Assembly: GCA_963801795.1 (NCBI GenBank)
Contig: CAWDFZ010000005.1
Coordinates: forward strand, 484,664-548,663
Source of the DNA: Ilumatobacteraceae bacterium
GTDB lineage: Bacteria; Actinomycetota; Acidimicrobiia; Acidimicrobiales; Ilumatobacteraceae
DNA: 64,000 bases
Reading direction: 5' to 3'
The notes beneath the pieces were generated by a model. It was given only the letters and a program-made list of their open reading frames with translations, did not search any database and had not been told where the DNA came from. Shown here in pieces: positions 1 through 32,224 of the stretch (positions are counted from its first letter, which is position 1; every line of letters starts with the position of its first letter). The translations under genes were made by a program, and so were the position numbers.

Positions 1-1
1 G

Positions 2-88
2 GTCATGATCGACCAGTCGATGGTCGACATGTTCCGCGGCGGCCTGATCGCCCGCGGGTTCCGCCCGGCCGTGCATTCGCTGTCGTGA
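2..88 (+). CDS. 3' end of an upstream CDS, product unknown (partial)
   Basis: An open frame enters from the left edge: VMIDQSMVDMFRGGLIARGFRPAVHSLS*, with TGA at 86-88. It is too short to assign. Confidence 0.3.
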   Translation, partial: VMIDQSMVDMFRGGLIARGFRPAVHSLS

Positions 89-106
89 CCACGCTCAGCA
101 CGCGAC

Positions 107-1403
107 GTGCGCCCGATCCGTCGCGCCGACGGGCCGGTGGTGGCCGACGTCGCGGTTCCACCGTCGAAGAGCATCACGAACCGCGCCCTGATCTGTGCCG
201 CGCTCGTCGACGGCACGAGCGAGATCGTGGGCGTCGCGCCCGGCGACGACACGTCGGCGCTGATCGCCTGCCTCACCACCCTGGGGTGCGGGATCGGGAT
301 CCGCGAGACCGACGAGGGGACGTGCGCCGACGTCGTCGGCACGGGCGGCGTGTTCCCGCGCCGGCCGATCACGTTGCACGCCAAGCTCGCCGGCACCACG
401 TCGCGCTTCGTCACCGCGCTGGCGGCGCTCGAACGGCGGACCGTTCACGATCGACGGCGATCCGCCGCTGCGCAGCCGGCCGATGGAGCACCTGCACGAT
501 GCGCTCGTCGCCCTCGGCGCCACGGTCGAGCCGGGGGAGCGAGTGGGGACATCTCCCGGTCACGGTGTCGGGCCCGCTGCGCGGCGCCGACGCGGTGATG
601 ATGCCGGGCGACGTGTCGAGCCAGTACGTCACGGCCTTGATGCTGATCGCGCCCGCACGTTCCCGGCGGGCTGCATCTGTGGTTGTCGACGCCGCCCGTG
701 TCGGCGAGCTACCTCCAGATCACCAAGGCGGTGATGCGCGAGTTCGGCATGGCGCGACGTGGAGATCAGCGGCCGGCGGGTCGCGGTCCAGCCGGGCGTG
801 TACGAGCCGACCGAGTTCCGGGTCGAACCGGACGCCTCGTCGGCGAGTTATCCGCTCGCCGCCGCGGCGATGGTCGGCGGCGCCGTGTGCGTGCGCGGTC
901 TCGGGGCGGCGTCGGTGCAGGGTGACGCCCGGTTCGCCGAGGTGCTCGCCTCGATGGGGTGCGTCACGTCGACCGGCACCGACACGGTGGTGATGCGGCG
1001 CCGCGACACACCGCTGCGCGGGATCGACATCGACATGTCCGACATGTCCGATCTGGTCCCCACCCTCGCCGTGGTCGCGACGCAGGCGGTCACCCCGACC
1101 CGGATCACCGGGGTCGGTTTCATCCGGCGCAAGGAGAGCGACCGGCTCGGGCGATCTCGCCGACCGAACTCGCCAAGACCGGCGCATCGGTGATCGTCGA
1201 GGACGACGGGCTGCTCATCCGCCCGACCGACCTGCTCAACGGCGCCACACTCGACACGCACCACGACCACCGGTTGGCGATGGCGTTCGGGCTGCTCGGG
1301 CTCGTGGTCGACGGCATCGCAGTGTCGCGACCCTGCCGTCGTCTCGAAGAGCTGGCCCGGATTCTGGGACGCGCTCGACTCGATCCCGGCCCGTCACACG
1401 TGA
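107..1403 (+). CDS. aroA: 3-phosphoshikimate 1-carboxyvinyltransferase (EPSP synthase), frame-disrupted
   Basis: Motifs PPSKSITNRAL, GDVSSQYVTALMLIAP, EPDASSASYPLAAAA and DHRLAMAF are spread over ORF pieces 107..598, 483..734, 85..993, 683..925, 759..1193 and 959..1711 (at least 5 frame changes). The C-terminus, read by hand, is ...SKSWPGFWDALDSIPARHT* with TGA at 1401-1403. Confidence 0.9.
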
Positions 1404-2007
1404 CGCGGATCGCCGCGTTCGATCTCGACGGAACGCTCACCGACCGTGACTGCGTGGTGCCGTTCCTGCGGCGGGTGGCCGGCACGCCCCGGCTCGTCGC
1501 CGGCGTCGCCGCCCATCCGATCGACGTGTCGAAGGCGCTCGTCGGCCGCGACCGGGACGCCTTCAAGGCGCTCGCCACACGGGCCGCGTTCGCCGGCCGC
1601 CCGCTCGGAGTTCTGGAGCCGGCGCGCCGTCGAGTTCGCGGCGCTCGTCCACGGCGGCTGGTTGCGCACCGACACGCTGGCCACCCTGCAGGCCCACCTG
1701 GCCGCCGATGATCAGGTCGTGATCGTGTCGGCGTCGTTCGCGATCTACGTCGAGCCGCTCGCCGCGCTGCTCGGGGTGCATCAGGTGCTGGCGACGCGCC
1801 TCGCCGTCGGAGCGGACGGCCGGCTGACGGGCGAACTCGACGGCGCGAACTGCCGGGGCCCGGAGAAGGTGCGCCGCCTGCACGAGTGGCTCGACACGCG
1901 CGCACGGTGGACGATCCGCCGTCGAGGTCGTCGCCTACGGCGACTCGCCCGGCGACCGCGAGCTGCTCGCCGACGCCGACGAGCCCCACTGGGTCGGCAA
2001 GCCGTGA
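1400..2007 (+). CDS. HAD-IB family hydrolase/phosphatase (SerB-like), frame-disrupted
   Basis: GTG 1400 overlaps the aroA stop (GTGA). HAD motifs are AAFDLDGTLT (DxDxT), VIVSAS and YGDSPGDRELL. Pieces lie in 959..1711, 1446..2108 and a third frame ending ...DEPHWVGKP* at TGA 2005-2007. Confidence 0.8.
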
Positions 2008-2061
2008 CGCTGCGCGACAGATCACCGGATCGACGCACCCCAGCCGGTACCGTCGTCGGCC

Positions 2062-2936
2062 ATGTTCACGGCCCTGCTGCGCGAAGCGCAGGCCCAAGCA
2101 GTGGCTGAAGAACATCCTCGTGTTCGCCGCGCCCGGCGCGGCCGGCGTCCTCGATCAGCGCCACGAGCTGGTCCTCACGATCGTCACGTTCGTGGCGTTC
2201 TGCTTCGCCGCGAGCGGCATCTACTTCTGGAACGACCTGCTCGACGTCGACGCCGACCGGGTCCACCCGACCAAGCGCTTCCGGCCGATCGCGTCCGGCG
2301 AACTGACGCATCACCGCGGCCCGGGTCGCGGGCGTCGTGCTGCCACTGATCGGTCTCGGCTTGAGCGCGCTCACCGGACGGTGGCAGACCGTCGCCGTCG
2401 TCGCCCTCTACATCGTGACCACGCTGCTCTACACCGTCTGGTTGAAGCACGTCGCCGTGATCGACATCGTCACGATCGCCTCCGGGCTTCGTGCTGCGGG
2501 CCGCCGCGGGTGCCGTGGCCGTCGACGTGCCGATGTCGCGATGGTTCGTCCTGTGCATCACGTTCGGCTCGCTGTTCATCGTCATCGGCAAGCGCTACGC
2601 CGAGCTGATCGAGCTCGGCGAGGGCGCCGGCACCCGCGGCGACGCTCGAGGTGTACGACATCGGCTACCTGCGCATCCTGCTCGCGGTCAGCCTCGGCGG
2701 CGCCCTGCTCAGCTACTGCGTCTGGGCGTTCGAGACCGCCGCTGCTGTCGACCTCGGACCTGCCGCTGTACGAGTTGTCGATCGTGCCGATGTTGATCGC
2801 CCTGTTCCGCTATCTGCTGGTGCTCGAAACCGGTGACGGCGCAGCACCCGAGGAGGTCTTCTCCTCCGACCGGGTGCTGCAGCTCGCCGGGCTGTGCTGG
2901 CTCGTCGTCTATGGAGCTGCCGTCTATGTCTCATGA
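2062..2936 (+). CDS. Decaprenyl-phosphate phosphoribosyltransferase (UbiA family, Rv3806c-like DPPR synthase), frame-disrupted
   Basis: RPKQWLKNILVFAAP and NDLLDVDADRVHPTKRFRPIASG (NDxxDxxxD), with many TM segments. Pieces are 2062..2349, 1886..2608, 2337..2936, 2491..2796 and 2651..2836. Removing one base near 2091 restores ...LLREARPKQWLKN. The start is uncertain (ATG 2062, or GTG 2004 overlapping the HAD stop). Confidence 0.85.
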
Positions 2937-2987
2937 ACCGTCTCCGGCGACAACCGACCCTCGGGCGACCGTCCCGATCTGCCGGCG

Positions 2988-3718
2988 GTGATGACGCTCG
3001 TCGCCGACGTCGAGGGCTGGATGAGCCCCGGCCAGGCGGCGACGCTGTACGACTCGGCCACCCGCTGTCCCACCGGGCGGATCGATCGTCGAGATCGGCA
3101 GCTTCCGTGGCCGGTCGACGATCGTGCTGGCGTCGGCGGCCGCGCCCGACGTCGAGGTGATCGCCATCGACCCCCACGCCGGCAACGACCGGGGCCCGCA
3201 GGAGATCGACGGGTACGCCGCCGAGGCCGCCGACGACCACCAGGTGTTCCTCGCCAACCTGGAACGCGGCCGGCGTCGCCGATCGGGTGCAGCACCTGCG
3301 GATGTTCTCCGACGACGCCCTGACGTCGATCGTGCGACCCGATCGACGTGCTGTACATCGACGGCGCCCACCGGTACGCACCGGCGCTCGCCGACATCCG
3401 CAACTACGGGATCCGGGTGACCGACGGCGGCACGATGCTCATCCACGACTCGTTCTCGTCGATCGGCGTCACGCTGGCCATCGTGCGGGCGCTGGTGTTC
3501 GGCTCGACGTTCCGGTACGTCGGGCGATCGCGATCGATGACGATCTACCGGGCCGACCTGCGCCGCGTCGGGCACCGGGCGCGCCCGCAACGCCGCGCGC
3601 CAGCTCGCCCAGCTGCCGTGGTTCGCCCGCAACGTGGCGTTGAAGGTGCTCCTGACGCTCGGCGCTCGGCAAGGTGCTCGGTCGTCTCGGCCGGCCCGTG
3701 CCCGAGTGGCCGTACTGA
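2988..3718 (+). CDS. Class I SAM-dependent methyltransferase (Methyltransf_24-like), frame-disrupted
   Basis: LVADVEGWMSPGQAATLYD, VEIGSFRGRSTIVLA (Gly-rich SAM loop, read by hand), DVLYIDGAHRY and LIHDSF. Pieces are 2988..3323, 3124..3420, 3287..3643 and 3348..5153. The end is ...GRPVPEWPY* with TGA at 3716-3718. An earlier ATG at 2933 overlaps the upstream stop (ATGA) and may be the true start. Confidence 0.7.
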
Positions 3719-3767
3719 TTCGGTGGCCGTACGATTCGTCGACACGATCTGTAGCCTCGGGAGCCCT

Positions 3768-5139
3768 GTGAAGTCCGAACGCACCGCACTCGCCGGTTGG
3801 GGCGGCACCGCGCCCAGCGTGGCGACGGTGATCGACGTCCGCCCCGACGAGCTGGACGACGCCGGGGCGCTGCTGTCACAGATCGGTCCCCGCGGCGCCA
3901 TCGCTCGCGGCCTCGGGCGTTCGTACGGCGACCCGGCGCAGAACGGCGGCGGCACGGTGATCCGCCTCCAGCCGGGCGACGATCCGATCCGGCTCCACGC
4001 CGACACGGGCACGGTCACGGTCGACGCCGGCGTCAGCCTCGACGAGCTGCTGCGGGTGATCATCCCGCAGGGTTGGTTCGTGCCCGTGTCGCCCGGCACG
4101 CGCTTCGTCACCGTCGGCGGCGCGATCGCCAGCGACGTCCACGGCAAGGGCCATCACGTCGACGGCACGTTCGGCGCCCACGTCAGCGAGATCGAGATGC
4201 TGCTGGCCGACGGGAGCATGCGGACGATCACGCCGGCGTCCGATCCCGATCTGTGGTGGGCGACGATCGGCGGGATGGGCCTCACCGGGCTCATCCTGCG
4301 GGCCACGTTCGACCTGATCCCGATCGAGACCCAGCACATCCTGGTCGTCAACGAGCGGGTGCCGAACTTCGACTCGCTGCTCGAACGGATGGTCGCCGAG
4401 CGATCACCTCTACCGCTACTCGGTCGCGTGGATCGACCTGATCGCCACCGGGTCAGCAGCTCGGCCGGGCGGTGCTCGGCGCGGGGCAACCACGCCACGC
4501 TCACCGACCTGCGCGAGCACCACCCGCGTTCGGCGGCCGACCCGCTCGGCTTCGATCCGCCCGTGTTCCCCGACGTGCCACCCGGCGTGCCGAACGTGCT
4601 CAACCGGCACGCGGTCCGCGGCGTTCAACGAGGTCTGGTACCGCAAGACCCCGAAGATGCATCGCGGCACCGAGACGCTCACCGGCTTCTTCCACCCGCT
4701 CGACATGGTCGGGCGGTGGAACCGGCTGTACGGCCGGCACGGCTTCCTGCAGTACCAGTTCGTCGTGCCGTTCGAGGCGGTCGAGACGCTGCGCACCATC
4801 GTGGCCAAGGTGGCCGCCGGCGGCGATGCCGGATTCGTCAACGTGCTCAAGCGCTTCGGCGCCGAGAGCGGCGGCATGCTCAGTTTCCCCCAGCCGGGCT
4901 GGACGCTCACCGTCGACTTCCCGGCGGCGCCCGGGCGGCTGGCCGGCCTCCTCGACGAACTCGACCGGCTCGTGCTCGACGCCGGTGGGCGGCACTATCT
5001 CGCCAAGGACGCCACGGCCGGCCCGTCGATCATCCGCGCCGGTTATCCACGACTCGACGAGTGGAAGGCGGTTCGCGCGCGCGTCGATCCCGACGGCCGT
5101 TGGGCGAGCGACCAGGCGCGCCGACTCGACCTCTTATGA
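3768..5139 (+). CDS. dprE1: Decaprenylphosphoryl-beta-D-ribose oxidase (FAD, VAO-type), frame-disrupted
   Basis: GTG 3768 lies 5 nt after GGGAG. Motifs are LAGWGG, ARGLGRSYGD, TVGGAIASDVHGKGHH, FFHPLDMVGRWNRLYG and HYLAKD. The gene is read from the internal part of 3348..5153, a short double shift near 4390-4480, then 4657..5139. Confidence 0.9.
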
Positions 5140-5193
5140 CCGCGAAGCTCTGACCGCGAAGATCTGTACGCGAACCGACACGACAGGACCAAC

Positions 5194-5942
5194 GTGAACA
5201 ACGCCATCCAACAGCCCCAGACCATCCTCGTGCTCGGGGGCGGCAGCGACATCGCCCAGGCGATCGTGCACGAACTCGCTTCGCCCGCGCTACGGACCGT
5301 GATCCTCGCCGGCCGTCACACGCCGATCGAGCTGACGACGCCGCTCGATGATGCCGTCTCGGTCGTCTCCGTCGAGTTCGACGCCCTCGATCACGCCGGC
5401 CACGACGCGCTCGTGCGATCGATCGCCGACGAGCACGGCGACCTCGACGTGGTGATCCAGGCGTTCGGACAACTCGGTGACGACTCGGTGAACGACGACC
5501 CGGTGGCCGCCGCGGCGCTCGCCGAGGTCAACTACGTCGGCGCGGTCAGCTCGGGTCTGGCCGTCGCCGCGCCAACTCCGCACGCAGGGCCACGGGACGC
5601 TCGTCGTGCTGTCGAGCGTGGCGGGCGTCCGCACCCGCGCCTCGAACTTCGTCTACGGCTCGACCAAGGCCGCCCAGGACGCGTTCGCGACCGGCCTCGG
5701 CCACGCGCTGCACGGATCGGGCGCCAAGGTGCTCGTGGTGCGGCCCGGGCTTCATCCGCTCGAAGATGACCACCGGTGTCGCCGAGGCCCCGTTCGCCGC
5801 CGACGTCGACGTGGTCGCCGCCGCCGTGGCCAAGGGCCTGCGCAAGGGGAGCTCGGTCGTGTGGGCGCCGTCGATCCTGCAGGCGGTGTTCGGCATCCTC
5901 CGCTTCGCGCCGGCCCCGATCTGGCGCAGACTCGATCGCTAG
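5194..5942 (+). CDS. dprE2: Decaprenylphospho-2'-keto-ribose reductase (SDR), frame-disrupted
   Basis: It lies immediately after dprE1. Motifs are ILVLGGGSDIAQA (Rossmann) and SSVAGVRTRASNFVYGSTKAAQD (Ser...YxxxK). Pieces are 5194..5769 and 5606..5956, then ...ILRFAPAPIWRRLDR* with TAG at 5940-5942. Confidence 0.85.
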
Positions 5943-5974
5943 TGCTGTGCCGATGAGTTGGTGAGAGGGCGCCC

Positions 5975-8104
5975 ATGACGGTCGAACGGCAGCCGGCGCT
6001 CGACGGCGTGCGCGCCTTGGCGCTCGTGCTGGTGCTGTTCTTCCACGCCGGCTACTCGTGGATGCCGGCCGGGTACATGGGCGTCTCGGTGTTCTTCACC
6101 CTGTCCGGGTACCTGATCACCAACCTGCTGCTCACCGAGTTCGACGCGTCGAACGGGATCCGGCTCGGCACGTTCTACTCGCGGCGCTGGAAGCGGCTGC
6201 TCCCGGCCGGTTTGCTGTGCCTCGTCGGCATCGTGCTGCTGCGGTTCGCCGGTGCGTTCCGCGAGGTGCAACACCTGCGCGGCGACCTGACCGCGGCGAC
6301 GTTGCAGTTCTTCAACTGGACCGAGCTGTCGCGCGGAACGAGCTACGCCGACCTCTTCACCGCCTCGGCCGAGCAGCTGTCGCCCGTCAAGCACTACTGG
6401 TCGCTGGCGATCGAGGAGCAGTTCTACCTGCTGTGGCCCGTGGTCCTGTTGCTGCTCGCCCGTCACGCTCGCCGTCGGAACGTTTCGGTGCTCTGGCCGG
6501 TCGCCGCGCTCACCGCCGTGTTCGTCATCGCCGCGCCCGTCATCGGTCGGCTGTTCGGCCCGGATGCCGCGTACTGGGCGACGCCGGCCCGCTTCGGGGA
6601 GATCCTCGTGGGGGCCACGCTGGCCTGCGTGCTGCGTTCGCCATGGGCGTCCCGCCGTGCGCCGTCGGCACGTGTGGGGACGGCGCTCGCGGTCGGCTCG
6701 CTGGCGGTCATCGTGGCGTCGGCCGTGGTCCTGCCCTCCGACGGCGGCCCCGCGTTCGACGGTTGGCTCGGCCTCTTCGCGCTCGCCTCCGCCGGTCTGA
6801 TCGTCGGCCTGCAGGCACCCGGCCCGGTGCGTCGCGTGCTGTCGTGGCGCCCGCTCGTGCTGCTCGGACTGGTGAGCTACGGCGCCTACCTCTTCCACTG
6901 GCCGGTGTTCGTCCTGTTGTCGACTCGCGGTTGGTCGTTGTCGAACTCGCCGTCGTTCGTCGTCGCCGTGGCGATCACCCTGGGGTTGGCGGCGGTGTCG
7001 TACCGACTCGTCGAACACCCGATCCGGCTGCGGTCGTGGAGCCCCGGCCGCGTCGGTGGGGCCGCGATCGCGGCGAGCATCGCGACGCTCGTGGCCGTGT
7101 TGGTGGCACCGCCGTCGTCGGGTGGATTTCTCGTGGCCGACGAGGGTCTGCTCGATTCGGCCGCCATCCAGCCCGTCGCGCCATTCACCGAACTCGAACC
7201 GGTCACCGAACTCGAACCGGTCACGAACTCGCCGCCCGCCCACCTCGACGACCCTTCCCGCGGTCCCGACCCCGATCGCCGTCGCGGGCCGATCGCCCGG
7301 CCAGGGCGGCCCGGCCGTCGCCAGTGAGACCACGGGCCCGGCCACGACCTTGCACGACCGACGACCGTCCCGCCGACGAGTGGGCCGCTGGTCCCGCCCG
7401 CGTCCGTTCCGCTCCCGCTGACGCCGAACCGTCCGGTCCGGATCCTGGTCGTCGGCGACTCGACGGCGTTCTACGTCGGGCACGGTCTGGCACGTTGGGC
7501 CGTCGAGCATCCGGACCTGGCGCAGGTCGACCTGCTCTGGAGCCAGGGTTTCGGTCTCCTCACCGCCGGCACGGTCACGGCGTGGGACGGCACACAGTTC
7601 GCGCAGCGCTCGATCGAGGTGCTCGACGAGGACCTACCGGCCCAGATCGATCGCCTGCAGCCCGACGTGGTCGTGCTGATGACCACGATCGACGATGTCC
7701 TCGACCGCGTCTGGGATGACGCCGAGGGTGAGCTCTCCACGGAGGACGAGCGGTTCCAGACGCGCTTGCACCAGGCGTACCGCGATGCCACCGCGTCGAT
7801 CGTCGAGCAGGGTGTGCCGTCGGTCGTCTGGATCGTGCCTCCCGTGCCGGTCAGTTCCAGCACCGCGGTGGAACTGAACGACCCTGCGACGTTCGAGGCC
7901 CAGCACGAGGTCATCCGCCGCGTCGTGGAGGAATTCGCCCCGGCGACTTCGGCGGTCGAGCTCGACCGTTGGATGGTCGAGGGCGGCCACGCCACCGACG
8001 CGTCGTGGCGCCCTGACGGCACGCACCTCACCGAGGAGTCGGCAGCACTCATCGCCGAGCTGATGCTCGGCCCGACGCTGGTGAACACCGCCGTCGGCGC
8101 CTGA
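5975..8104 (+). CDS. Acyltransferase-3 (OafA/YrhL-like) membrane protein fused to a C-terminal SGNH/GDSL hydrolase domain
   Basis: The AT3 part is 5975..7327 (LDGVRALALVLVLFFH, SVFFTLSGYLIT, YGAYLFHWPV). A low-complexity linker follows with at least 1 frame change at ~7327-7420. The SGNH domain is in the frame of 7619..8104 (ILVVGDSTAFYVGH, WRPDGTHLTEE). The total of ~710 aa fits this architecture. Confidence 0.8.
7186..7221 (+). repeat. Perfect 18-bp tandem duplication inside the acyltransferase linker (encodes TELEPV x2)
   Basis: caccgaactcgaaccggt occurs twice in tandem, followed by a partial third unit, cacgaactcg. Confidence 0.85.
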
Positions 8105-8114
8105 CCGTTGATGA

Positions 8115-8150
8115 CCTGACCCCGCTTGATCGGTCAGTCAGCGGGGCAGG
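8115..8150. terminator. Hairpin between convergent genes (candidate bidirectional terminator)
   Basis: ccccgct (8120-8126) pairs with agcgggg (8140-8146), flanked by cctg/cagg. It lies between the stop at 8102-8104 (+) and the stop at 8138-8140 (-). There is no clear U-tract. Confidence 0.35.
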
Positions 8151-9863
8151 TCTTCGGGATCGACGTACAGCGGGTACTTGCCGGGGACGTCGGCCGGGCT
8201 CACGCCACCGCCGCCCTCGCACCGCTGGTACAGCAGGACGAGGTTCTCGTCGTACTGTTCCACGAGGCAGAAGTTGTCGGCGACCGCCTGGTTCGCCTCC
8301 TCGGAACGGTGGACCGCCGACGTGTTCGGTTCGATCCAGCCCGTCCAGAAGTTGGTCAGCACGAGGCAGTCGGCCGACTCGATGTCCTCGGCCAGCCCCG
8401 AGCCCGCGGTGTCGGCCAGGCCCGGATCCATCTCGATGAAGTAGGTGCGCCGGCACCAGTTCGGGGAACAGGTAGTAGAGGGCGACGTCGCTGTAGATCG
8501 TGCGGCTCAGATCGGCCGGGCCGACGACGATGCGGTCGCCCGGCTCGCTCAGCTCGTCGAGGTCGACGATCAGATCGTTGAGCGCCGCGGCGACGGTCGA
8601 GTGCGAACCAGAACCGGCGACCGTCACGTTCGACCTAGGAACGGCAGCGGCACGTCGCCGAACGAGACCCGGGTGTGCAGCAGGTAGTTGCGGTAGGTGA
8701 AGAACGGGGCGACCACGAACATCAGCACGCTCACGGCCACGACGCCGGCGACCTGGGCGACCCGTACCCGGCCCGGCCAGTGGCGCATCGTGATCTCGGT
8801 GATCGCCACGGCGAGCAGCGGCCACGAGACGACGGCCACCCAGGCCAGGTGCGTCGAGTCGGGTCGTTGGAGCGCCTGGGGCAGGATGCCGAGGCCGAGG
8901 AGCCCGGCCGACAGGAGGACGAACGTGCGCGGGGTCGAGTTGCCCCGGCGGCGCTGCCACCAGGCGACGAGCGGCACCGCGATGGCGATGATCACGACGG
9001 CGAAGAACCAGAGGAACAGCTGCTTGGACGCGTTCGAGCGCCGGGAAGCGCCACCACGGCGGCAGGCCTTCGGCGACCGCCTGCAGTGCGCCGTCGATCA
9101 TGTTCCACGACGGTGGTCGGGGGAGTTCGCGGCCGGCGCGGAGGCGGAACACCGGGTCGAGGAAGATCCCCTCGAACACGTTCCACGGCCCGGCGATCGA
9201 CGAGATGGACCCACATCGGGATCAGCCCGACGGCCGCTCCGATCAGCAGCGGCTTCCAGCGCCGCCGCCGATGGACCCAGACGGCGAAGAGGAGCGCGAG
9301 CGCCGATCGCCAGCACGATGTCGGGCCGGAACGTCAGGGCGATGCCGGCGAGCAGCCCGGCGATCACCCAGTTCGACGTCCGTCCGGTGCAGACGGCTCG
9401 CACGGCGAACACGATCGACCACAGGGCGAGCGCGAGCGCACCGTGCCAGGCCAGCGCCGACAGGCCGATCGGGGTCATGATCAGCACGGCCGTGATCCAC
9501 GCCGCGCCGACCGCCGCGACACGACCCCAGGCCCGCGTCAGCGCGTACATCGCCGAAGATGATCCCGAGGTGCTGGAGCAGGCCGAAGGTCCGTTCGGCC
9601 TCGAGCGTGTACCCGAAGACCCAGTACCAGAGGGCGAGCAGGTCGAGCGAGCCGGGCCCGTACAGGTGCAGGAAGTCGACGTTGGGGATCTTGCCCTGCT
9701 GCACCAGGCGGGGGAAGACGAGCATGAAGCCCTCTTCCATCGACGACCCGGTCGTCTGGAACAGGCCCTTCACGGGCAGGGCCACGACCGCCAGCACGGC
9801 GAGCGACGGCGAGCCCGCCGCGCCACGACCACCGCAACCGGCCACCGAGCACGAACGGCCCAT
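8138..9863 (-). CDS. Polytopic membrane protein, GT-C-like glycosyltransferase candidate, frame-disrupted
   Basis: Chained minus-strand pieces are 9243..9956, 9098..9550, 8049..9179, 8624..8995 and 8138..8431. There are many TM helices (LAVLAVVALPV, AAWITAVLIMTPIGLSALAW, LLSAGLLGLGILP) and a soluble C-terminus, ...NFCLVEQYDENLVLLYQRCEGGGG. I recognise no specific family. The start is uncertain (ATG 9863 or 9956). Confidence 0.55.
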
Positions 9864-9975
9864 CGGGAACGACGGTCGACGTCGACGTCGGATTGTTCGA
9901 GCAGGTCGGTCAAGCCCCGAGATGGTATCCAGCTCGACGCCGCCGATCCCGGCCACACGGCCTATCGTCGTGGCG

Positions 9976-11146
9976 ATGTCGGGACGCGGACCTGCAGTGG
10001 TACGTCGACGACCTCGTCGGCTCGGGCGTCCGGCGGGTCCACGTGCTCGCCTGGCGCGACCTCGACGATCCCGACGCCGGCGGGTCCGAGGTGCACGCCG
10101 ACGAGTTCATGCGCCGCTGGGCCGCCGCCGGGCTGGAGATCACGCACCGCACGTCGGCGGCGATCGGCCAACCGGCCACCGCACGACGCAACGGCTACGA
10201 CGTGGTCCGCCGCGGGAGCCGCTACACCGTGTTCCCGCGGGCCGATCGCCGGCGAGATCGACGCGGACGATGGGTCGCTACGACGCCATCGTCGAGATCT
10301 GGAACGGCGTCCCGTGGTTCTCGCCGGTGTGGCGCCGCACGCCGGGGATCACGTTCCTCCACCACGTCCACGGCCCGATGTGGGACCAGATCCTGCCCGG
10401 GCCCACTGGCCTCGTTCGGGCGGGCGCTCGAGGCCCGGCTGGCGCCGCCGTTCTACCGCCGCGGCCTGACGGTGACCCCGTCCGACGCCACCCGGGACGA
10501 GCTGCTCGAACTCGGCTTCCACCCCGATCGGGTCACGGCGATCCCCAACGGCACCGACCCGATGTTCAGCCCGGGCGGGCAGCAAGACGGCGAACCCGTC
10601 GATCGTCGCGGTCGGGCGCCTCGCACCCGTGAAGCGCTTCGAGCTGCTGATCGACTCGGCCGTCACCGCCCGCCGCACGCGTGCCCGGGCTCACGCTGAC
10701 GATCGTCGGGGAGGGGCCCGAACGCGACGCGCTGCGTCGACCTGGTCGACGCGGCGCGACGCCGGCGACTGGGTCCGCTTCGCCGGACGGGTCGACCACG
10801 CCGACCTCGTCGATCTCTACCGGCGCGCCTGGATCGTGGCCAGCGGCTCGCTCGCCGAGGGCTGGGGCCTGAGTCTCACGGAGGGTGCCGGCTGCGGAAC
10901 GCCGGCCGTGGCCACCGACATCCGCGGCCACCGCAGCAGCGTCGTCGACGGCGTCACCGGCATCCTCGCGCGCGCCCGACCGAGCTCGGCGACGCGAACT
11001 GGCCCGTGTCCTGCTCGACGACGCACTCGCGCCTGCGCCTCGGCCAGGCGGCGCTCGAACGGGCCCGCACGCTCACCTGGGACGCCTCGGCGCTCGGGAT
11101 CATCGAGGTCCTGCACCGCGGCGACGTGACCGGTCGGCTGACATGA
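9976..11146 (+). CDS. GT4-family glycosyltransferase, frame-disrupted
   Basis: VHVLAWRDLDDPDAGGSEVHA, PDRVTAIPNGTD, LTIVGEGPERDAL and EGWGLSLTEGAGCGTPAVATD (the GT4 E-x7-E region). Pieces are 9893..10699, 9559..10632, 10629..11129 and 10885..11763. The end is ...HRGDVTGRLT* with TGA at 11144-11146. The start is uncertain (ATG 9976 requires a shift). Confidence 0.8.
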
Positions 11147-11920: not shown

Positions 11921-13841
11921 TGACCGACAGCGCATCGGCCGACACTGCGCCGGCGCGACCGCACCGGCGAGACTGGCCGACCGACGGTGCCGCACCGGGT
12001 CGACGGCGTCCGCCTGGCGCACGTCGCCCTGGATCACGATCGTGGTCGTCACGATCGCCGTCGCGCTGCCGCTGATCGTCGCCGTCGCCACCCTCTCCGG
12101 CCGGCGGTGGTTCCCGGTGCTCGACCTGGCGATGACCGAGTTCCGGGTGCGCGACGTCGGCGGGCGGCACACGCCGCTGATCGGGCTGCCCGGGCCGGAT
12201 CGGGACGTTCCCGGAACAGGGCAGCCACCCCGGCCCGATCAGCTTCTGGCTCGTCGCGCCCGGCTACCGGCTGTTCGGCAGCTCGGCGTGGGCGATGGAG
12301 GCCGCGACGGTGATGATCCAGATGGCCTGGATCGCGCGTGGCGCTGTGGATCGGTCACCGCCGGGCCCAACTGGCCGGCGTGCTGGTCGTGGCGGCGGTG
12401 ATCGCGGTGCTGCTGCCGCGGCTACGGGCTGGTGGTGCTGATCCAGCCGTGGAACCCGTACCTGCCGCTGATCGCCTGGATCGTCGTGCTGCTCGCCGCC
12501 TGGTCGGTGGTGTGCGGCGACCACATGATGCTCGTCCCGCTCGTCGTGGCCGCGTCGTTCGCCGCCCAGACCCACATCCCGTACCTGCTGATGGCCGGCG
12601 GCCTTGGTCTGTTCGCCGTCGCCGTCGTGCTCGTCCGCTGCTGGCGCAGCGACGATCGCCGGGCGTTCGTGCGGCCCCTGGCCTGGACCGGCGGTCTGTT
12701 CGCGGTGCTCTGGTTGGCGCCGTTGGTCGAGCAGATCCGTCACGATCCGGGCAACCTCCGCCAGCTGATCGACCACTTCACGTCGCCGACCGAGGACGTG
12801 ATCGGCTGGCGCATGGGCGGCAACGTCCTGCTGCGCCACCTCGATTTCGTCGACGGCTACCTCCGGCTGCTCACCGGCACCGATCGCTTCCTCCAGGTCG
12901 GCTTCGAACCCGACGGTCGCATCTGGCCGGGGGTGCTGCTGCTCGTCGCCTGGATCGCCTCGGTCGTCGTCGCAGTCCGGATGCGGCATCGCTCGCTGAT
13001 CGCGCTCGACACGGTGATCGGGGTGACGCTGCTGCTGTCGTTGGTGTCGATGGCCCGCATCTTCGGCATCGTCTGGTACTACCTCACGCTCTGGGCCTGG
13101 GGCACGACGACGCTCCTGATCGTCGCCATCGTGTGGACGGCGGCCACCTCGTGCATCGGTGCCTGGCACCGACGCACGACCTTGACCGTGCGGCGGGTGG
13201 CGATCGTCGGGTCGCTGGCGCTCGGTGGGTTGGTGATCGTGTCGATGGTGATCGTGGCACCGGGCACGGACCATCCGGAGGAGCGCCTCGGCGCGACGGT
13301 GGGCGCACTGCTGCCGGCGACGATCGAGGCCCTCGACGCCGGAGTCGGCGCCGCCGACGGTCGCGACGGCCGCTACGTCGTGCAGTGGAACGACGCCTAC
13401 TTCTTCGGGAGTCAGGGCTTCGGCCTCGTCAACGAACTCGAGCGCGCCGGCTTCGACGTCGGGATGTACGAGCCGTGGCACGTCCCGGTCACCTCGCACC
13501 GCGTGATCCCCGCCGGGCAGGCGACCGCCGAGGTCGTGATGGTCACGGGCGGGTTCGTCGACCAATGGCGTGGCCGACGACCGCGTGGTCGAGGTCGCCT
13601 CGTTCGACCCGCGTACCGACGCCGAGCGCGAGCAGTTCACGGCGCTGCGCGACGGATCTGATCGCCGATCTCGAAGCGAACGGTCTCGACGACCTCGTGC
13701 CGATCGTCGACACGAACCTGTTCGGGGTGCGCGTCGATCCCGCGGCTCTCGGAACGAGCTCGCGAGGATGCCGCCCGCCTGCTGCTCCTCGGTCAGGAGA
13801 CCGCTGTGTTCATCGGCCCGCCCGGGGTGGCGACGCCGTGA
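11920..13841 (+). CDS. Large polytopic membrane protein with a C-terminal soluble domain (paralogue 1), GT-C candidate, frame-disrupted
   Basis: ATG 11920 overlaps the Ppm stop (TGATG). Pieces are 11869..12075, 12042..12401, a hand-read stretch (SHPGPISFWLVAPGYRLFG), 12432..13661, 13570..15288 and 12338..14587. The end is ...ETAVFIGPPGVATP* with TGA at 13839-13841. It is homologous to the next gene. Confidence 0.65.
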
Positions 13842-18347: not shown

Positions 18348-20195
18348 TCACGGTCGTGGCCGTGTTGCTGTTCTGGCTCGTGTCGACGTCGTGGCAGCCG
18401 TGGAACCTCCTCGCCCGAGCCGGTTTCAGCGCCGACTTCTACGACGAGCAGGCGAGGGTGTTCCTCCGGGGCCGGCTCGCCGTCGACCCGCGGTTCCGGG
18501 GCCGGAGGGTTTCCTGATCGACGGCGGGACGTACCTGTACTACGGCCCGTTCCTGTCGTTGGTGCGGATGCCGTTCCAGCTGTTCGGCGACTTGTTCACC
18601 TCGCGCCTCGTGCGGCTGTCGATGCTCGTCGCCGTCGTCGTGCTGTGTCGCTGGTCGGCCCGCCTCGCCCGCGCCGCCCAGCGCACGTTCGGTTCGTTCC
18701 GGACCCGTCCCCAGACGAACCGAGCGGACGGGAAGCCGGTCGACGAGCGATGGGTCGTGGGCTTGTTCACGGCGGCCGTGGTGTTCTCGCCGGCGATCTT
18801 CGCCGCCGGGTGGATCAGCGTCTACAACGAGACCGAGCTCTGGGCGTTCACGCTGGCCATCGTGTCGGCCACGCTCGTATCGTGGAGTGGGCCGCCTCGC
18901 AGTTCACGTCGATCCGCCTGCTGATCGGTGCGATCGCTGCCGCGCTCGGCGGCGACATTGACCACGCGCCCCGATCGGGCTCGGCATGGCGTTCGCCATC
19001 GGCGTGTGTGGACTGGTGCTCGCCTGGCGGAACCGGACCGATCGCCGACCTGGCGGCACCCGTACGGCGATCCTGGCGATCGTCGGGGGACTGCTGCCAC
19101 TGGTCGCCCACGCGGCGGTGAACTTCGCCAAGTTCGGCACGCTCTTCTCGGTGCCCGGCGGTCGCCAGGTGCTCTCGTTGCAGGACCCGTCGCGGGCCGA
19201 CTGGTTCGCCGGGAACAACGACAGCTTCTTCTCGCCGCGGTTCCTGACCACCACCGTCGTGCAGTACCTGCGACCGGACGCGATCCGCTTCGAGCGGCTC
19301 GTACCCGGCATCCGGTTCGGCCCGGTCGCGCCGAACCGGGCGTCGTATCCGTTGCTCGGCAACACCCCCTCGTCGTCGCTGACACTCACGGCCACGCTGC
19401 TGTTGATCCTCGCCGTCGTCGGCGCTGTCTGGATCGTCCGCCGGCGAGCGCTCACGTGGGGGTTGGTCGTCGTGTGCACCGCTCGGCGGCGCGCTCCCGA
19501 CGTTCCTCATCGGCTTCCTCGCCCAGCGGTACCTGATCGACATGCTGCCGCCGCTCGCCGTCGCCGGATCGATCGGCGCGTGGGCGATCGGGACGTGGGC
19601 GGTGGGGCGATCGTCGGCTCGTTGGATCGCCGCCGGCGGCGTCGTGCTGGTCGTGTGGGGCGCCTGGGCGAATCTCTCGCTCGCCACGTGGACGCTCGAC
19701 CAGAAGTCACCGGGGTTCACCGAGCTGCGTTATCGGGTCGACGACGCCGTCTTCTCCGGCCCATCACCCGGCCTGATCTCGATCGAACCCGGCTCGCCGG
19801 TGGCCCGTGATGGCATGACGGCGGTCGAGATCGACCCGGATGCGGGCTGCACGGGTGTCTACACCGCCGAACAGGGTGTCTGGGTCGCCGTCGAGCGGGG
19901 ATCCGCACGTCAGGTGACCCAGACCGTGACCGCCGACCGGGTTCCGACCCCGCTCGCCGCCGGCGACGGGTGGGCCGTCGACCTCGACCTGTCCGACCCG
20001 GCCATCGCGCACGTCATCGTCACCGATGGGAGCGGTGCGGTGATCAGCGATCAGCCGGTGCCGAACTGGACCCCGCTCGAGGAGGACGAAGAACGCGACG
20101 TCACCGTGATCGTCGACCCGGTCACCAACACCTCGACGATCACCATCGACACGCGGCGACGCCGGCGACGAGGCCATGCTGTTCCTCCCCGGTGA
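18320..20195 (+). CDS. Polytopic membrane protein, GT-C-like glycosyltransferase candidate, frame-disrupted
   Basis: Pieces are 18320..18517, 18277..18924, 18645..19121, 18986..19810 and 19542..20195. Blocks include FYDEQARVFLRGRLAV, FLIDGGTYLYYGPFLSLVRMPF and many TM helices, with a soluble C-terminal region. Both ends are uncertain (start 18277-18320, end 20195-20281). Confidence 0.55.
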
Positions 20196-26835: not shown

Positions 26836-29800
26836 GGCGAACCTTTGGAACGATCGGGAAGGTTCGAACGGCGAGGGAGGCTCGACCTTCCGGGAATGAG
26901 CGCCGAGCACGTCAGCAACACCACGCCCAAGCAGTGTCCACGGGTGGAGCCACTCGAAGTGGACCGGAAATCCCGCGTTGGGGAACGGCCGGTCGCGGCG
27001 GACGACGAGGACGACGATGCACTGGGCGACGATCACGATCAGGAACCCGAAGACGGCGAGCAGACGTTGGCGGCGGAGGGCGTAGGCCACGAGCGAAACG
27101 GCGAGCGCGACGGCTCCCCACACCCAGCCGATCAGTACCGCACTCGCGACGGTGGCGATGATCACCGTCGGGACACGGACCGCTTCGGCACGCCAGCGCG
27201 ACGGCGGGAAGGGCCGTGGCACCGGCGCCGGCACGAGCGCGTCACCGTCTCGACGACGATCGGCGACGACCAGGACGATGCAGGCCAACACTCCCAGGAG
27301 CGAAGCGACGAGGGCGACGTTCAAGGTCCGCTGTGCGGTCCAGCGGAACGTGATGGTGGTCGGTTCGTCGGTCGGTCCGACGAACCAACCGTTCGCGTTG
27401 CCGTCGACGAGCGTCGGCGGGCCGAGCGACCCGGCGTCGTCCGATGCCGTCCACGCCGGGTTGTACCCCTCACCGAGCACCACCCAGCACCCTTGCGGAC
27501 ACGGCGACACCTCGACCGTCCGACCGGTCCGCGACGTCGAGGTGACCGTGACGGTGGGAGCGGGTGTCTCTTCGGCGGCCGCGCCGTCGTCCGGCTCGGC
27601 CAGGACGACCTGGTCGACGTGGAACCCCGACCCCGCGCCGGAGATCGACGTGCCGGAGATCGACGTGCCGGTGGTCGAGGTGACCGTGTGGGTTCCGGAG
27701 TCGAGTGCGACCACGGACGAATTGTCGCCGGTGCACAGTGTGGCGTCGATCGGCTCGCCGCGCAGGATGGCATCGGTCGATGCCGTGAACGACAGTCCGA
27801 CCGGCGCGCCGTCGACCTGCAACAGGTCGTCGCGGCACTCATCGACGTGATCGCCGGCCGGTGTCACGCCAGGTGACGTGCCGTCGAAGGTGATCTCCGA
27901 GATCGCGGCGGGCAGCAGGACGGCCTCGCCGAACCGCCGGTCGACGGTGGTCCTGACGTCGACTCCGGTGATCTCGATCGTCGCATCGCGCAGATCGATC
28001 GCGCGGGGGAGTGCCACGTCGGTGCCGGCCGGGTCGACGTCGAGATCGAACGATCCGGCCGGGTCGGAGATCCGGACCTGCGTGATCGGGCTGAACGTCC
28101 CGGCCGGCTGGGCGATCGCGATGGACTCAGCGGTGCCGTCGAGGGCGAGGTGCAGCGACGGCCCGACGGGTGAGCCGAACGGCGTGATCCACGACGTGTC
28201 GGGGTCGCCGTCGACGGCGGACGCCCCGCGGGCACCCGGCACACCCGTGAGGTGAGCCGTCGCCACGACCGGCTCGCCGAGCAGTTCGGCGAGCGCCGGG
28301 TCGTCCATGCGCTGGTCGGCGCGCAGCACGACACTCGTGTCGAACGCGGCATCGTTCGGCACCTCGAACTGCCGGCGCAGTGCCGGGCTCCGGATCGGAC
28401 CTCCAGCGGTCGGTCGGGTCGGTGCGGAGCCGAGTGAACACCATGCTGAGCGGAGTCGTGGCATCCGCACCGTTCATCGCCGTCGTGGCGTCGACCGGCA
28501 CCCGGATCATCTCGGTGGTCGGTTCGAGCCCGACGTCGATCGTGGCGAAGCCCACGCCGCCGACCGCTGTCACCGATCGGCGACACGTCGATCCCCGTGC
28601 CGGTGCCGGTGATCCGCAGCGTGATCCGGCTGCGGCGCCGTGGTCGGGTCGATGTCGATCCGCTGGCCGTCGCCGACGAGCGAGGATTCGTCGAGGGCGA
28701 TCAGCGTCGGGTCGCGATCGTCGACGGTCAGTTCGACTTCCGTGATGCGCCGCTGCCCGTCGACCGTGTCGGGCTGGCGCAGGGTCACGTGGTCGATCGG
28801 TTCGCTCACGTCGAGCACGATGGACTCGTCGAGCGCCGGCCCACGATCGCCGACGGTCCAGCTCGTCGCCGGGTCACCGTCGATCGCCATCACCGGACGG
28901 TGTTCGGGCAGGTAGGCGAACGGTTCGCCGTACGCGCTGGCGGTCGCGGTGACCGGCCCGTCCTGGATCGAGATGGTCTGCGTGTCGGGATCGTCGGTGT
29001 CGAACACGGGCAGCCGTTGGTCGCCGCTCTCGTAGCGCAGCACGCCCGCATCGTCGCCCGCCTCGGTGTAGCCCGTCACGTCCTGCGAGCTGCGCCAGTG
29101 GTGCGCACGGTCACGGTTCGAGTCGGTGACGACCACCCGCGTCGCGTTCGACACGGCATCGCTCGAGCGGCGTCACCGCTGAGCGAGGCGCTGTAGAGGA
29201 TCAGTTCCGATCCGTCGATCACGCCGGCGGCGGCGGCGTCGACGAGCCCGTCGCCGCTGCCCGACAGCACGACCACGGCGTCCTTCGCCCGGATCGTGGC
29301 CACCGGTGCGTCGACGCCGACCAGCGACACCGTGGCGAGCGGTTCACCGACGCGGGGGTCGCTGACGGACTGTTCGTCGACGACCGGGATCGCGCCGATG
29401 TTCGGTGCCGGTCTCGCCGAACCGCTCGGGCGGGAGCAGACCGGCGTCCGCCGCTCCGGCGCCGGTGAGCAGATCGTCGACGATCTCGGGTCGGGCGAGG
29501 CGGAAGCGGTCGAAGGCGACGTCGTCGGCCACCCAGATCGTGTCGACACCGAGCAGCCGGGCGACCGGCGCGATCGCATCGACGTCGACCACGCCGTCCT
29601 GGAACCGATCGTCCAGGGCGAACACGAGATCCATCGCCGCGGCGCTGCCGAGCGGCAACAGGTCGCGGGTGAGCAGCGGGCGCTCCGTCAGCGCCGGCAA
29701 CGGCTGGTCGACGGTGTAGCCCCAACGGAACGCACCGAACTCGCCGCCGGGCAACTGGAGGACCCGGTAGCCGGCGGGCAGCGAGTCGAGGTGCGCCGCG

Positions 29801-31176
29801 GCGTCGAGCCACGCCTGCGGCGGATCCTGGTCGCGTTCGAGTTGGGGGTCGACGAACCCGCCGTTGCGCAGCGACGGGAGATAGCCGACCGCCAGCAACG
29901 CGATCACGACCGCGCTCACCGCACCGCAGGTCCAAACATGTCGCATGGGGTCAGGCACTTCGCGACGTTGCACGCCGACGGCCCGGCAGTCGGATCGACC
30001 CGCAGGCCGCCACGAGCGAGGCCGCACTCAGGGCCGAGCCCGAACACGAGCACCGGCACGGCGCGGGTGCTGCTGCGCAACGCCAGCGCGAGCCCACCTT
30101 CGCCGTCACCGAGCAGCGACCGACATCAGCGGCGACGGATCGTCGATCGGGTGGACCCCGACGGCGAGCACCAGCCCCGAACCGATCAGCAAGGCGACGT
30201 AGCGGCGGTGCTGCCACGTCGTGAACACCAGGCCGCTCAGCACCACGGCGAGCAGGCCGACCCCGAACACGATCACCCGGGTGGACGCGAGGTAGTCGAG
30301 CGAGGCCGTCGTGGTGGCGCCGAACGCGTCGCGGATGTAGAACAGCCAGTAGCCCAGACCGCGCAGGACCTCCGTCGACGTCGACGTGAACGACACCGAC
30401 TCGAGCGACTCGGAGTAGGCGAGCACGTCGGCGCCGTGCTTGCCCTGGATCATCAGCATCGCGATCCACCACAACGACACGGCGATCGAGAGCACGGCCA
30501 CCTTCGCCGCGGTGGCGAGCGCCCGCCGCCACGTGATCGACCGTTGCCAGACGGCGTGGACGAGCCACAGCGCCGGTGCCGGGATGATCATCGCCAGCGC
30601 GGTGGCGTTGACCGCGCCGACGGTGAGCACCACGAGCGCCACGCCGGCCGCGAACCGCCATCGCCCGCGCTGCGCCGCGAGCACCGTGAGGCCGACGATC
30701 CACCCGAGCCCGGCGTACGGGAGGAGCAGGATCGACGTGCGCGACACGTAGGGGAGGATGTACGGCGAGAGCTGGTAGACGATCGCCGCGGCGAGCGCGG
30801 CGGTCGGGCCCGAGCCCGAGCAGCCGCGCCACCCAGCGCACGCCGAGGCCGGCGGCGAGGAGCAGCGTGCCGACCCAGAGTCGATGGGCGAGCCAGTCGG
30901 GGACGCCGATCGCGCTCGAAGAACCAGAACCACGGGCCCATCGGCCACAGGTAGGCGATGTGCTGGTGCGGCACCCACCCGGCGTACTGGCGGGGGTCGA
31001 ACGTGAACGTCGTTGTCGCCGAGGAAGCGGCCCGGGTTCAGGTACACGTAGAGCTTGGAGTCGGACGGCATCCGCCCCGGCGCCGCGGTGAGCGCGGGCA
31101 CGTACGCGAGGAGCACCAGCACCGCCACCGACACCGCCGACTGACGGCGGGCGAGCCACCGGCGGAACTCGTTCAA
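26832..31176 (-). CDS. AftD-family alpha-(1->3)-arabinofuranosyltransferase-like GT-C (DUF3367-type), ~1450 aa, frame-disrupted
   Basis: TTG 31176 overlaps the upstream stop (TTGA). The N-terminal polytopic domain has DSKLYVYLNPGRF, VYQLSPYILPYVSRTSILLLPYAGLGW and GLGYWLFYIRD. The large extracytoplasmic part has two discoidin-like repeats (AIDGDPATSW, AVDGDPDTSW), and TM helices close the protein. It is chained from 30106..31665, 29951..31159, 29344..30027, 29076..29579, 28570..29154 and 24925..28470. The last stretch, read by hand, ends at the TGA codon occupying 26832-26834. Confidence 0.8.
27638..27682. repeat. 15-bp tandem repeat inside the AftD-family CDS (encodes GTSIS x2)
   Basis: ccggagatcgacgtg occurs twice, followed by a diverged third unit, ccggtggtcgaggtg. 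Confidence 0.8.
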
Positions 31177-32224
31177 CGTGCCTCGGGCAGCAGGCTCGAC
31201 CAGCGCTTCACGATCGACAGCACGCCTTGACGGGCGCTGCGACGGTGGTGCGAGGCGCCGGCATCGTCGACCGTCGCCCGATTGGCGACGAACCAGTCGT
31301 AGCTCTGGGCGAACATGTCGGCGGTCGACCACGCCGGGCGTCCAGGCGAGGCTCCGCTGCAGGTGGTCGAGGTCGAACCACATCGACTTCGAGTACATCA
31401 TCCAGTGGTACGGCGCGAACGGGGAGATGCCGAGCGCGGCACTGAGCCGCATCCCGAGCGACGCCGGCGCCGCCGGCAGCGAGCGGACCGTGGCGCCCGT
31501 GCCGGCGTGCTCGCAGAGGTCGGCGAGCGTCTCGCGCATCGTGCCGAACCGGTCGGTGCCGACGTTGAAGATGTCGGGACCTTCGGTCGCCGCGGCCCGG
31601 ACGCACGCCTCGGCGAGATCGTCGGAGTGGACGAACTGGTACCGGTTGGTCCCGTCACCGAGCACGATCGGGTCGTACGCCGTCGGCGATCCAGTCGAAC
31701 AGGATGCCGAAGATGCCGAGCCGGCCGTGACCGAGGATCGTGCGCGGGCGCACGATCGACACGTCGAGACCGTCGCGGGCGGCGGCGAGGCAGGCCCATT
31801 CGGCGGCGAGCTTGGCGTGCCCGTACGCCTCCATCGGCGACGGCACCGTGGTCGGCATCACCGGGTTCGACTTCGGAACGCCGAACACCGCGCTCGACGA
31901 CGTGTGGATGACCTTGGCCACACCGGCCGCGGCGCTCGCACCGAGGAGGTTCGCGGTGCCGTCGACGTTGACGGTCCGCAGCAGTTCGGCGTCGCGGGCG
32001 AGCGGCACCTGGGCCACGTTGTTCATCACGACGTCGATGCCCTCGACCGCACCGCGCACGACCGCCATGTCGCGAACGTCGCCGCGCACGAACTCGACGT
32101 CGGACGGACGGTCGGACGCGTCGTTCAGGTCGAGCACGCGCACGCGGTTGCCGGGCGTGGCGAGGCGGGCGACGAGGAGCGAACCGAAGTACCCGCTGCC
32201 ACCGGTGACGAGGTAGCTCGTCAC
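31173..32224 (-). CDS. NAD-dependent epimerase/dehydratase (extended SDR), frame-disrupted
   Basis: GTG 32224 gives VTSYLVTGGSGYFG (GxxGxxG), and YGHAKLAAE is the YxxxK motif. Pieces are 31655..32326 and 30106..31665, then a hand-read ...SIVKRWSSLLPEAR* ending at the TGA codon occupying 31173-31175. Confidence 0.8.

Follow-up and report, generated by a model that had tools for sequence, protein, structure and literature searches.

An Ilumatobacteraceae operon that probably supplies polyprenyl-phospho-D-arabinofuranose, with an embedded O-methyltransferase gene

Does a member of the Acidimicrobiia, a deep-branching class of Actinomycetota, encode the arabinofuranose-donor pathway of Mycobacterium tuberculosis (Mtb), and what would the two further enzymes that lie among its genes be doing there? 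The question is raised by positions 1400-5942 of a stretch of 64,000 nucleotides from an Ilumatobacteraceae contig (CAWDFZ010000005.1; the whole stretch is called the window below), in which the original prediction had placed a complete decaprenyl-phospho-arabinose (DPA) pathway as one block with two extra enzymes embedded. We consider it quite probable that 1400-5942 is the Acidimicrobiia version of a polyprenyl-phospho-D-arabinofuranose operon, and that the frame breaks which interrupt its genes are one-base insertion errors of long-read type.

Genes of the operon

Pfam matches in the three plus-strand frames follow one another in the order EPSP_synthase, HAD, UbiA, Methyltransf_24, FAD_binding_4 with ALO, and adh_short. 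The predicted gene list and order are therefore right, with a HAD hydrolase before the synthase and a methyltransferase between the synthase and dprE1. The genes, with the positions of the inserted bases discussed in the next section, are as follows.

98..1403, + strand: aroA (5-enolpyruvylshikimate-3-phosphate synthase), the upstream neighbour; Pfam PF00275 and tblastn with the intact protein of locus L003; insertions at 428, 540, 652, 751, 1146, 1160 and 1327
1400..2007, + strand: HAD-IB hydrolase, ~201 aa; TIGR01490 at 127 bits (cut-off 98), PF12710 at 3e-38; insertions at 1625 and 1899
2062..2936, + strand: UbiA-type polyprenyl-phosphate 5-phosphoribosyltransferase, that is, decaprenyl-phosphoryl-5-phosphoribose (DPPR) synthase, orthologue of Rv3806c, 289 aa; NF008978; insertions at 2089, 2307, 2484, 2638 and 2743
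2988..3718, + strand: class I S-adenosylmethionine (SAM)-dependent O-methyltransferase (Methyltransf_24, MeT1/COMT-like); PF13578 at 3e-20; insertions at 3075, 3267, 3334, 3562 and 3664
3768..5139, + strand: DprE1 orthologue (FAD-dependent polyprenyl-P-ribose 2'-oxidase), 455 aa; NF053785; insertions at 4400, 4450, 4480 and 4623
5194..5942, + strand: DprE2 orthologue (2'-keto reductase of the SDR family), 248 aa; NF053786; insertions at 5571 and 5747

All of these genes are co-directional and separated by gaps of ~30-55 bases, or overlap. The GTGA junction that had been proposed between aroA and the block is indeed present at 1400-1403, where the stop codon of aroA (TGA, 1401-1403) overlaps the start codon of the HAD gene (GTG, 1400-1402). 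A promoter/terminator scan returned no promoter-like sites and three terminator-like sites, with 1.9 of the latter expected by chance.

We analyzed the insertion-corrected proteins of the operon against NCBIfam, Pfam and the PDB. The UbiA-type synthase scored 331 bits with the equivalog model NF008978 (cut-off 207), and its best PDB match is Rv3806c itself (8J8J, E=3e-59, residues 5-286 aligned with 17-299). The Asp-rich motif NDxxDxxxD is kept (query NDLLDVDADRVHPTKRFRPIA, Rv3806c NDVRDVEADREHPTKRFRPIA), and HPTKRFRPIA is also conserved between the two proteins in this alignment. DprE1 reached 564 bits with the equivalog model NF053785 (cut-off 500), matched both PF01565 and PF04030, and aligned end to end with the Mtb DprE1 structures (E=5e-126), with Lys418 (Mtb numbering) retained, as YLAKD stands opposite YTAKD. 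DprE2 scored 269 bits with the equivalog model NF053786 (cut-off 250); Mtb DprE2 is its sole PDB match below 1e-10 (E=3e-48), and the SDR motifs are present, the Gly-rich one as GGGSDIAQA and YxxxK as YGSTK. The claim of a UbiA-type DPPR synthase, DprE1 and DprE2 in one co-directional run is thus borne out, as each protein passes its equivalog cut-off and has an Mtb enzyme as best PDB match. In these NCBIfam and PDB matches the three core proteins side with DPA enzymes and not with non-DPA paralogues. The results support the assignment of the block as orthologues of Rv3806c, DprE1 and DprE2, which would make up a complete polyprenyl-phospho-arabinofuranose donor pathway.

At the position of Mtb Cys387, the DprE1 of the window has Thr (motif PGWTLTVDFP, window ~4930-4940). 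This cysteine is the covalent benzothiazinone site of DprE1 and marks drug sensitivity, not activity. Of 66 related loci, 45 have Thr at the equivalent position, 16 have Ala and five have Cys, and those five all belong to Pseudonocardiaceae.

The HAD hydrolase carries catalytic motifs I-IV (FDLDGT, VSAS, GPEK and GDSPGD), and its best PDB match is an uncharacterised protein (3FVV, E=1e-7). Its gene adjoins that of UbiA in 63 loci, often abutting or overlapping it. Polyprenyl-phosphoribose synthases have been shown to act together with a phosphoribose phosphatase of the HAD family, the two being fused in Citrobacter youngae ORF15; systems that make arabinofuranose have epimerases of the DprE1/E2 type in addition, and the last component is a GT-C enzyme (Kelly et al., PNAS 2024, PMC11127046). 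We therefore propose that the HAD hydrolase may be the polyprenyl-P-5-phosphoribose 5-phosphatase, a functional analogue of Rv3807c. The original prediction had counted it as an extra enzyme; by the HAD modules of Kelly et al. (PMC11127046), it is instead the expected replacement for the Rv3807c phosphatase.

The same layout was found widely among relatives when the corrected proteins were compared by tblastn with 80 related loci. The order aroA-HAD-UbiA-MT-DprE1-DprE2 (MT, the methyltransferase) occurs in ~50 Acidimicrobiia loci, the same order without MT in ~10 further loci, and a conserved polytopic gene converges on dprE2 in ~30. The position of the operon after tyrA-aroA is conserved class-wide and belongs to the core genome. 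Six Pseudonocardiaceae loci are Mycobacterium-like, with dprE1-dprE2 alone and ubiA elsewhere. The layout does differ from that of Mtb, as had been noted, being one operon rather than two loci, but it is common to ~60 Acidimicrobiia loci and not particular to this contig. In gene identities, order and conservation across relatives, the operon is unremarkable: it is typical of its class and belongs to a known pathway, and its one open point is the conserved embedded O-methyltransferase.

The spacer between MT and dprE1 varies among relatives. Three loci (L010, L014 and L077) have DNA inserted there, encoding a cupredoxin-like lipoprotein, a cation antiporter and a NuoF-like protein; none of these three inserts holds a flippase or transferase, and for a fourth locus, L059, no qualifying ORF (open reading frame) was listed. 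In L003, a 63-base insert at ~9040-9125, aligned to window position 3724, resembles a direct duplication of a ~30-base unit (TTCGTTCTGGCCCCGTCCCC.AACGCACGGG) and is absent from the window, L001 and L002.

One-base insertions and the reading frames

As sequenced, not one gene in 1400-5942 is intact, and each Pfam match is divided among the three plus-strand frames. The prediction that the enzymes are recognisable thus holds by Pfam and NCBIfam, but the genes themselves are broken, with 18 insertions in the block. The window has a G+C content of 70%, and tracking of third-position G+C showed that the coding phase shifts by +1 every 70-950 bases across 1-5942, so that no long ORF with normal codon bias is found in this region.

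The insertions were listed from a four-way alignment of region 1-5942 in the window and three relatives, the nearest relatives being contigs of Ilumatobacteraceae metagenome-assembled genomes (class Acidimicrobiia). One of these, L001, is collinear with the window at 90% nucleotide identity; another, the contig L003, comes from a short-read assembly and carries all six genes as unbroken ORFs, GTGA junction included. The alignment yielded 25 one-base insertions private to the window (18 in the block and seven in aroA, or, by gene, aroA 7, HAD 2, UbiA 5, MT 5, DprE1 4 and DprE2 2) and no window-private deletions, and 1-5942 holds no nonsense substitutions. Deleting the inserted bases gave six full-length ORFs (aroA, HAD, UbiA, MT, DprE1 and DprE2) with zero internal stops, at 85-96% identity to their counterparts in relatives. 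The bias toward insertions spans the entire window: over the whole 64 kb, 83 phase jumps are of the +1 class against 33 of the other class, which includes true gene boundaries, and housekeeping and transporter genes are hit equally with the block. Over the entire contig, there is about one spurious inserted base per few hundred bases.

Given that each gene is interrupted in the window as given, the breaks could be thought real, the arabinose-donor pathway and aroA having decayed through true frameshifts. Seven insertion sites are moreover common to the window and to L081, a second, independently assembled strain with 97.6% identity to the window. We read these seven sites as context-dependent systematic error. 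L081 also has 16 private insertions of its own, all different, and a decaying locus would hardly gather 25 changes out of 25 as +1 insertions, with zero deletions and zero nonsense substitutions, whose removal yields full ORFs, under a bias shared with housekeeping genes throughout the 64 kb. Real, ancestral frameshifts at the shared sites would imply neutral evolution of the genes from before the two strains split; with 82 synonymous and 33 nonsynonymous differences between window and L081, the ratio of nonsynonymous to synonymous substitution rates (dN/dS) is instead 0.14, which is incompatible with such neutrality, and we conclude that these are not pseudogenes. Decay, to which we give very little probability, was rejected on this ratio. 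We conclude that the frame breaks are no gene decay but errors in the consensus of a long-read-type assembly, biased toward insertions and in part dependent on context, because they are insertions only, form a contig-wide pattern, leave every ORF restored when deleted, and accompany a dN/dS of 0.14. It follows that ORF lists for the window are unreliable, and ORF-based calls on this contig are untrustworthy unless frameshift-tolerant.

Proposed pathway, glycan locus and embedded methyltransferase

Each chemical step of the pathway is read from homology and synteny, and so are the acceptor glycan and how long the lipid carrier is. The synthase would load ribose-5-phosphate from phosphoribosyl pyrophosphate (PRPP) onto polyprenyl phosphate, and the HAD-IB hydrolase would take off the 5-phosphate, in the role of Rv3807c. 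DprE1 would then oxidise C2' of the lipid-linked ribose, and DprE2 would reduce the 2'-keto intermediate to arabinofuranose. The donor is predicted to be flipped across the membrane and used by GT-C glycosyltransferases on an envelope glycan, which could afterwards be O-acylated by AT3-SGNH enzymes. Two genes are candidates for this use, a PMT_2-type one that converges on the operon at 8.1-10 kb and one for an AftD homologue at 28.6-31.3 kb; they belong to a 30-kb envelope-glycan locus, whose relevant features are these.

5975-7327 and 7328-8104, + strand: AT3 acyltransferase and SGNH domain; PF01757 at 5e-29, PF19040 at 3e-7, weak SucT match of 86 bits
~8150-9975, - strand: polytopic glycosyltransferase of GT-C fold, PMT_2-type, frameshifted by errors; PF13231 at 2.5e-7 (intact L003 orthologue) and 9e-5 (window pseudo-translation), tblastn mapping, synteny
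12402-13658, ~13831-15662 and ~18511-20150, + strand: three large polytopic membrane proteins; unmatched in Pfam and NCBIfam
28592..31320, - strand: homologue of AftD-type arabinofuranosyltransferases (GT-C super-domain and following periplasmic region); PF11847, 6W98

Downstream of dprE2, at a distance of 2.2 kb and beyond the acyltransferase insert, is the PMT_2-type gene, which converges on the operon and is the polytopic gene conserved beside dprE2 in ~30 loci. It has no PDB sequence match, and we regard its product as a candidate user of the lipid-linked pentofuranose. The AftD homologue, 23 kb away from the operon and inside the large glycan locus, matches PF11847 at E=1e-81 (profile positions 4-653 of 661) and Mycobacterium abscessus AftD (6W98) at E=4.5e-39 over ~800 residues. 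AftD homologues have been noted before outside Mycobacteriales. The three polytopic proteins could be GT-C-type transferases or polymerases not yet characterised; neither they nor the AftD-like protein received a name from NCBIfam. Translations of 8.1-38.2 kb gave no Pfam or NCBIfam match for Emb, AftA, AftB, AftC or GlfT2. Although Emb, AftA, AftB and GlfT2 went undetected in 8-38 kb, the earlier statement that no emb/aftA/aftB/glfT-type genes are visible next to the block does not hold, in view of the PMT_2-type GT-C gene at ~8150-9975 and the AftD homologue at 28592-31320. Because of these two genes, the argument drawn from it, that a lack of arabinosyltransferases points to a non-classical glycan, fails on its premise; its conclusion, that the product is not classical arabinogalactan or lipoarabinomannan (LAM), may still be right.

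AT3 and SGNH share one frame, with a single TGA between them in a Pro/Gly/Arg-rich linker. By its sequence the pair is assigned as a glycan O-acyltransferase of OafA/SucT type, carried on a strain-variable insert; it may be a single OafA/SucT-like protein whose stop is an error, or else two separate genes. The insert (window 5943-8166) is present in the window and in L001, and is missing from L002, L003 and the 97.6%-identical L081. Other genes of the glycan locus encode one GT4, three GT2 (one fused to GtrA and one followed by a Methyltransf_23 domain) and an amino-acid ABC transporter, and on the minus strand also two sugar epimerases/dehydratases, a GMC oxidoreductase and a fused GT-C and GT2 protein. 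The AftD homologue probably continues into 26.9-28.5 kb; it runs into a stop-free frame of 1182 codons (24928-28473, - strand), which also encodes a further AT3 domain (SucT-like, 66 bits) and a serine protease domain of MarP type, and insertion errors have possibly blurred the gene boundaries in 24928-31320. At 35191-37143 (- strand), a single intact ORF joins an N-terminal polytopic GT-C-like region (weak PMT_2, GT87) to a C-terminal GT2 domain that resembles polyprenyl-phosphate hexose synthases. The remaining part of the window, 39000-64000, was inspected by eye: it holds two peptide-type ABC transporter sets, a molybdopterin (xanthine/CO dehydrogenase-like) enzyme, amidohydrolases and a gamma-glutamyltranspeptidase-like protein, to which Pfam added an M20 peptidase and an L,D-transpeptidase. 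These transporters and catabolic enzymes have no visible tie to the glycan locus.

The methyltransferase between the synthase and dprE1 has MeT1 as its best sequence match (PDB 6G7D, E=1e-9), with the DGxH and HD motifs aligned. An AlphaFold model of a 92%-identical homologue (P0001; pLDDT 86) has a class I SAM fold, whose best fold match is MeT1 of Mycobacterium hassiacum (E=1e-13, TM 0.75), followed by cation-dependent O-methyltransferases of the COMT/MycF type. NCBIfam gave no match for the protein, and a homologue search returned close relatives only, generically annotated. The gene is under purifying selection (dN/dS 0.15-0.24). Its C-terminal tail of ~45 residues (window 3580-3718) forms three short helices with many invariant residues (QLPWF...GRPxPxWPY) and may be a membrane- or partner-binding element, and the true start of the gene may lie upstream, overlapping the end of UbiA. 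SAM is available in the cytoplasm only, so methylation probably takes place at the inner membrane face, on a sugar that is nascent or linked to lipid. Most likely it would O-methylate a sugar of the pathway or of its product there. As ~10 operon loci lack the gene, methylation would be an accessory step.

Two other uses of the operon have to be weighed against the supply of plain arabinofuranose to an envelope glycan. The methyltransferase could act on the lipid-linked pentofuranose, such that the exported donor is O-methyl-pentofuranosyl phosphopolyprenol, or it could methylate or cap the final glycan, with no plain arabinofuranose in either case. The place of its gene between the synthase and dprE1 in most Acidimicrobiia loci speaks for this, as do the selection on it, a sugar O-methyltransferase (MeT1) as closest characterised relative, a conserved helical tail as a possible anchor to the membrane or to a partner protein, and the confinement of SAM to the cytoplasm. 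The ~10 loci without the gene show that it is dispensable for the core pathway, however; its family annotation is only generic, and its substrate is taken from a gene neighborhood, which alone can mislead. We think a methylated product unlikely on balance, though it is the more serious of the two alternatives. The cassette could also supply arabinofuranose for the tailoring of a secondary metabolite and serve no envelope glycan, as in the arabimalamide cluster, an actinomycete natural-product cluster in which a compact cassette joins DPPR synthase, phosphatase, DprE1 and DprE2 to a membrane glycosyltransferase (PMC13110770). In 8-38 kb there is no sign of scaffold genes, whether for a nonribosomal peptide synthetase (NRPS), a polyketide synthase (PKS) or otherwise; the neighbors there are GT2, GT4 and GT-C enzymes, acyltransferases and sugar epimerases, and across the class the operon keeps its core-genome position after tyrA-aroA. 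A secondary-metabolite cassette was rejected for want of scaffold genes in 8-38 kb, and its probability is close to nil.

Several observations nevertheless weigh against our main reading, the insertion sites shared with L081 among them. Among the 63 loci in which HAD adjoins UbiA, fusions of the two, sought as Rosetta-stone evidence, number zero, and the HAD protein has no match at E<=0.001 to the fused HAD-UbiA model NF006088, the UbiA half of which does match the window synthase. A dedicated flippase of the MATE, SMR or GtrA type was found neither in the operon nor elsewhere in 1400-10000, the only GtrA domain of the window being the one fused to GT2 at ~15.7-16.8 kb. The most likely role of the methyltransferase is read from synteny and fold. 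We found no biochemical or chemotaxonomic report of arabinofuranose in Ilumatobacteraceae in the literature, and likewise no arabinose data on Ilumatobacter cell-wall sugars and no paper on DprE1 in Acidimicrobiia. A cultured member of the Iamiaceae (Acidimicrobiia) has rhamnose, ribose, mannose and galactose, and arabinose was not reported (PMC12263773).

The locus shows a complete arabinofuranose-donor pathway, an AftD homologue and several other GT-C enzymes to be standard equipment of Ilumatobacteraceae and related Acidimicrobiia. These bacteria are abundant in soil and water, and to our knowledge their envelopes are almost unstudied; we know of no arabinan described in the class. The age and the spread of D-arabinofuranose glycans within Actinomycetota may thus be much greater than the literature on mycobacteria would suggest. 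In the DprE1 proteins of these bacteria, Thr or Ala replaces the Cys to which benzothiazinones bind covalently. Speculatively, Acidimicrobiia might build a D-arabinofuranose envelope glycan in which, ahead of export, a membrane-associated enzyme like MeT1 adds an O-methyl group to the pentofuranose on its lipid or else caps the arabinan, a step that would be new to DPA pathways, and the single-operon layout with HAD could be the ancestral actinobacterial form from which the split mycobacterial loci derive; we put rather little weight on this extended scheme.

Comparison with known systems

The DPA pathway of Mtb (Rv3806c, Rv3807c, Rv3790 and Rv3791) is the closest reference: its synthase, oxidase and reductase are orthologous to those of the window over their full length (204, 425 and 168 bits, respectively), the predicted chemistry, from PRPP to lipid-linked arabinofuranose, is the same, and an AftD homologue is also present in the window. 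In contrast with Mtb, where the genes occupy two loci and the phosphatase Rv3807c is of PAP2 type, the host here is a member of the Acidimicrobiia and not of the Mycobacteriales, the genes form one operon with a HAD-IB phosphatase and an embedded O-methyltransferase, and DprE1 has Thr in place of Cys387. Moreover, no GtrA-type gene like Rv3789 lies beside dprE1, and Emb, AftA and AftB are undetected in 8-38 kb of the window.

The three-component pentofuranose systems (Kelly, Duong, Nothof, Lowary and Whitfield, PNAS 2024), which include C. youngae O1/O2 and the D-Araf system of Pseudomonas aeruginosa pilin, likewise combine a UbiA-type synthase with a HAD phosphatase, use DprE1/E2 where Araf is the product, and have a GT-C transferase nearby. 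The HAD module is fused in C. youngae ORF15, whereas it is a separate gene here; the block in the window has no MATE or SMR flippase gene, its GT-C is a weak PMT_2 match, its host is of Gram-positive type, and it has the extra methyltransferase. That enzyme is best compared with M. hassiacum MeT1 (6G7D, 6G80), its closest match in both sequence and fold, with the DGxH and HD motifs common to both; identity is ~26%, and the enzyme of the window differs in its additional C-terminal tail of ~45 residues, which MeT1 lacks, and in its very different gene context. MeT1 is the sugar 1-O-methyltransferase of methylmannose polysaccharide synthesis (PMC9883506). Finally, the Araf1-5 cassette of arabimalamide (Angew Chem 2026, PMC13110770) is likewise compact, with DPPR synthase, phosphatase, DprE1, DprE2 and a membrane glycosyltransferase; it stands in an NRPS/PKS cluster with a PRPP synthetase, whereas the operon of the window stands in a core-genome envelope-glycan locus and includes a methyltransferase.

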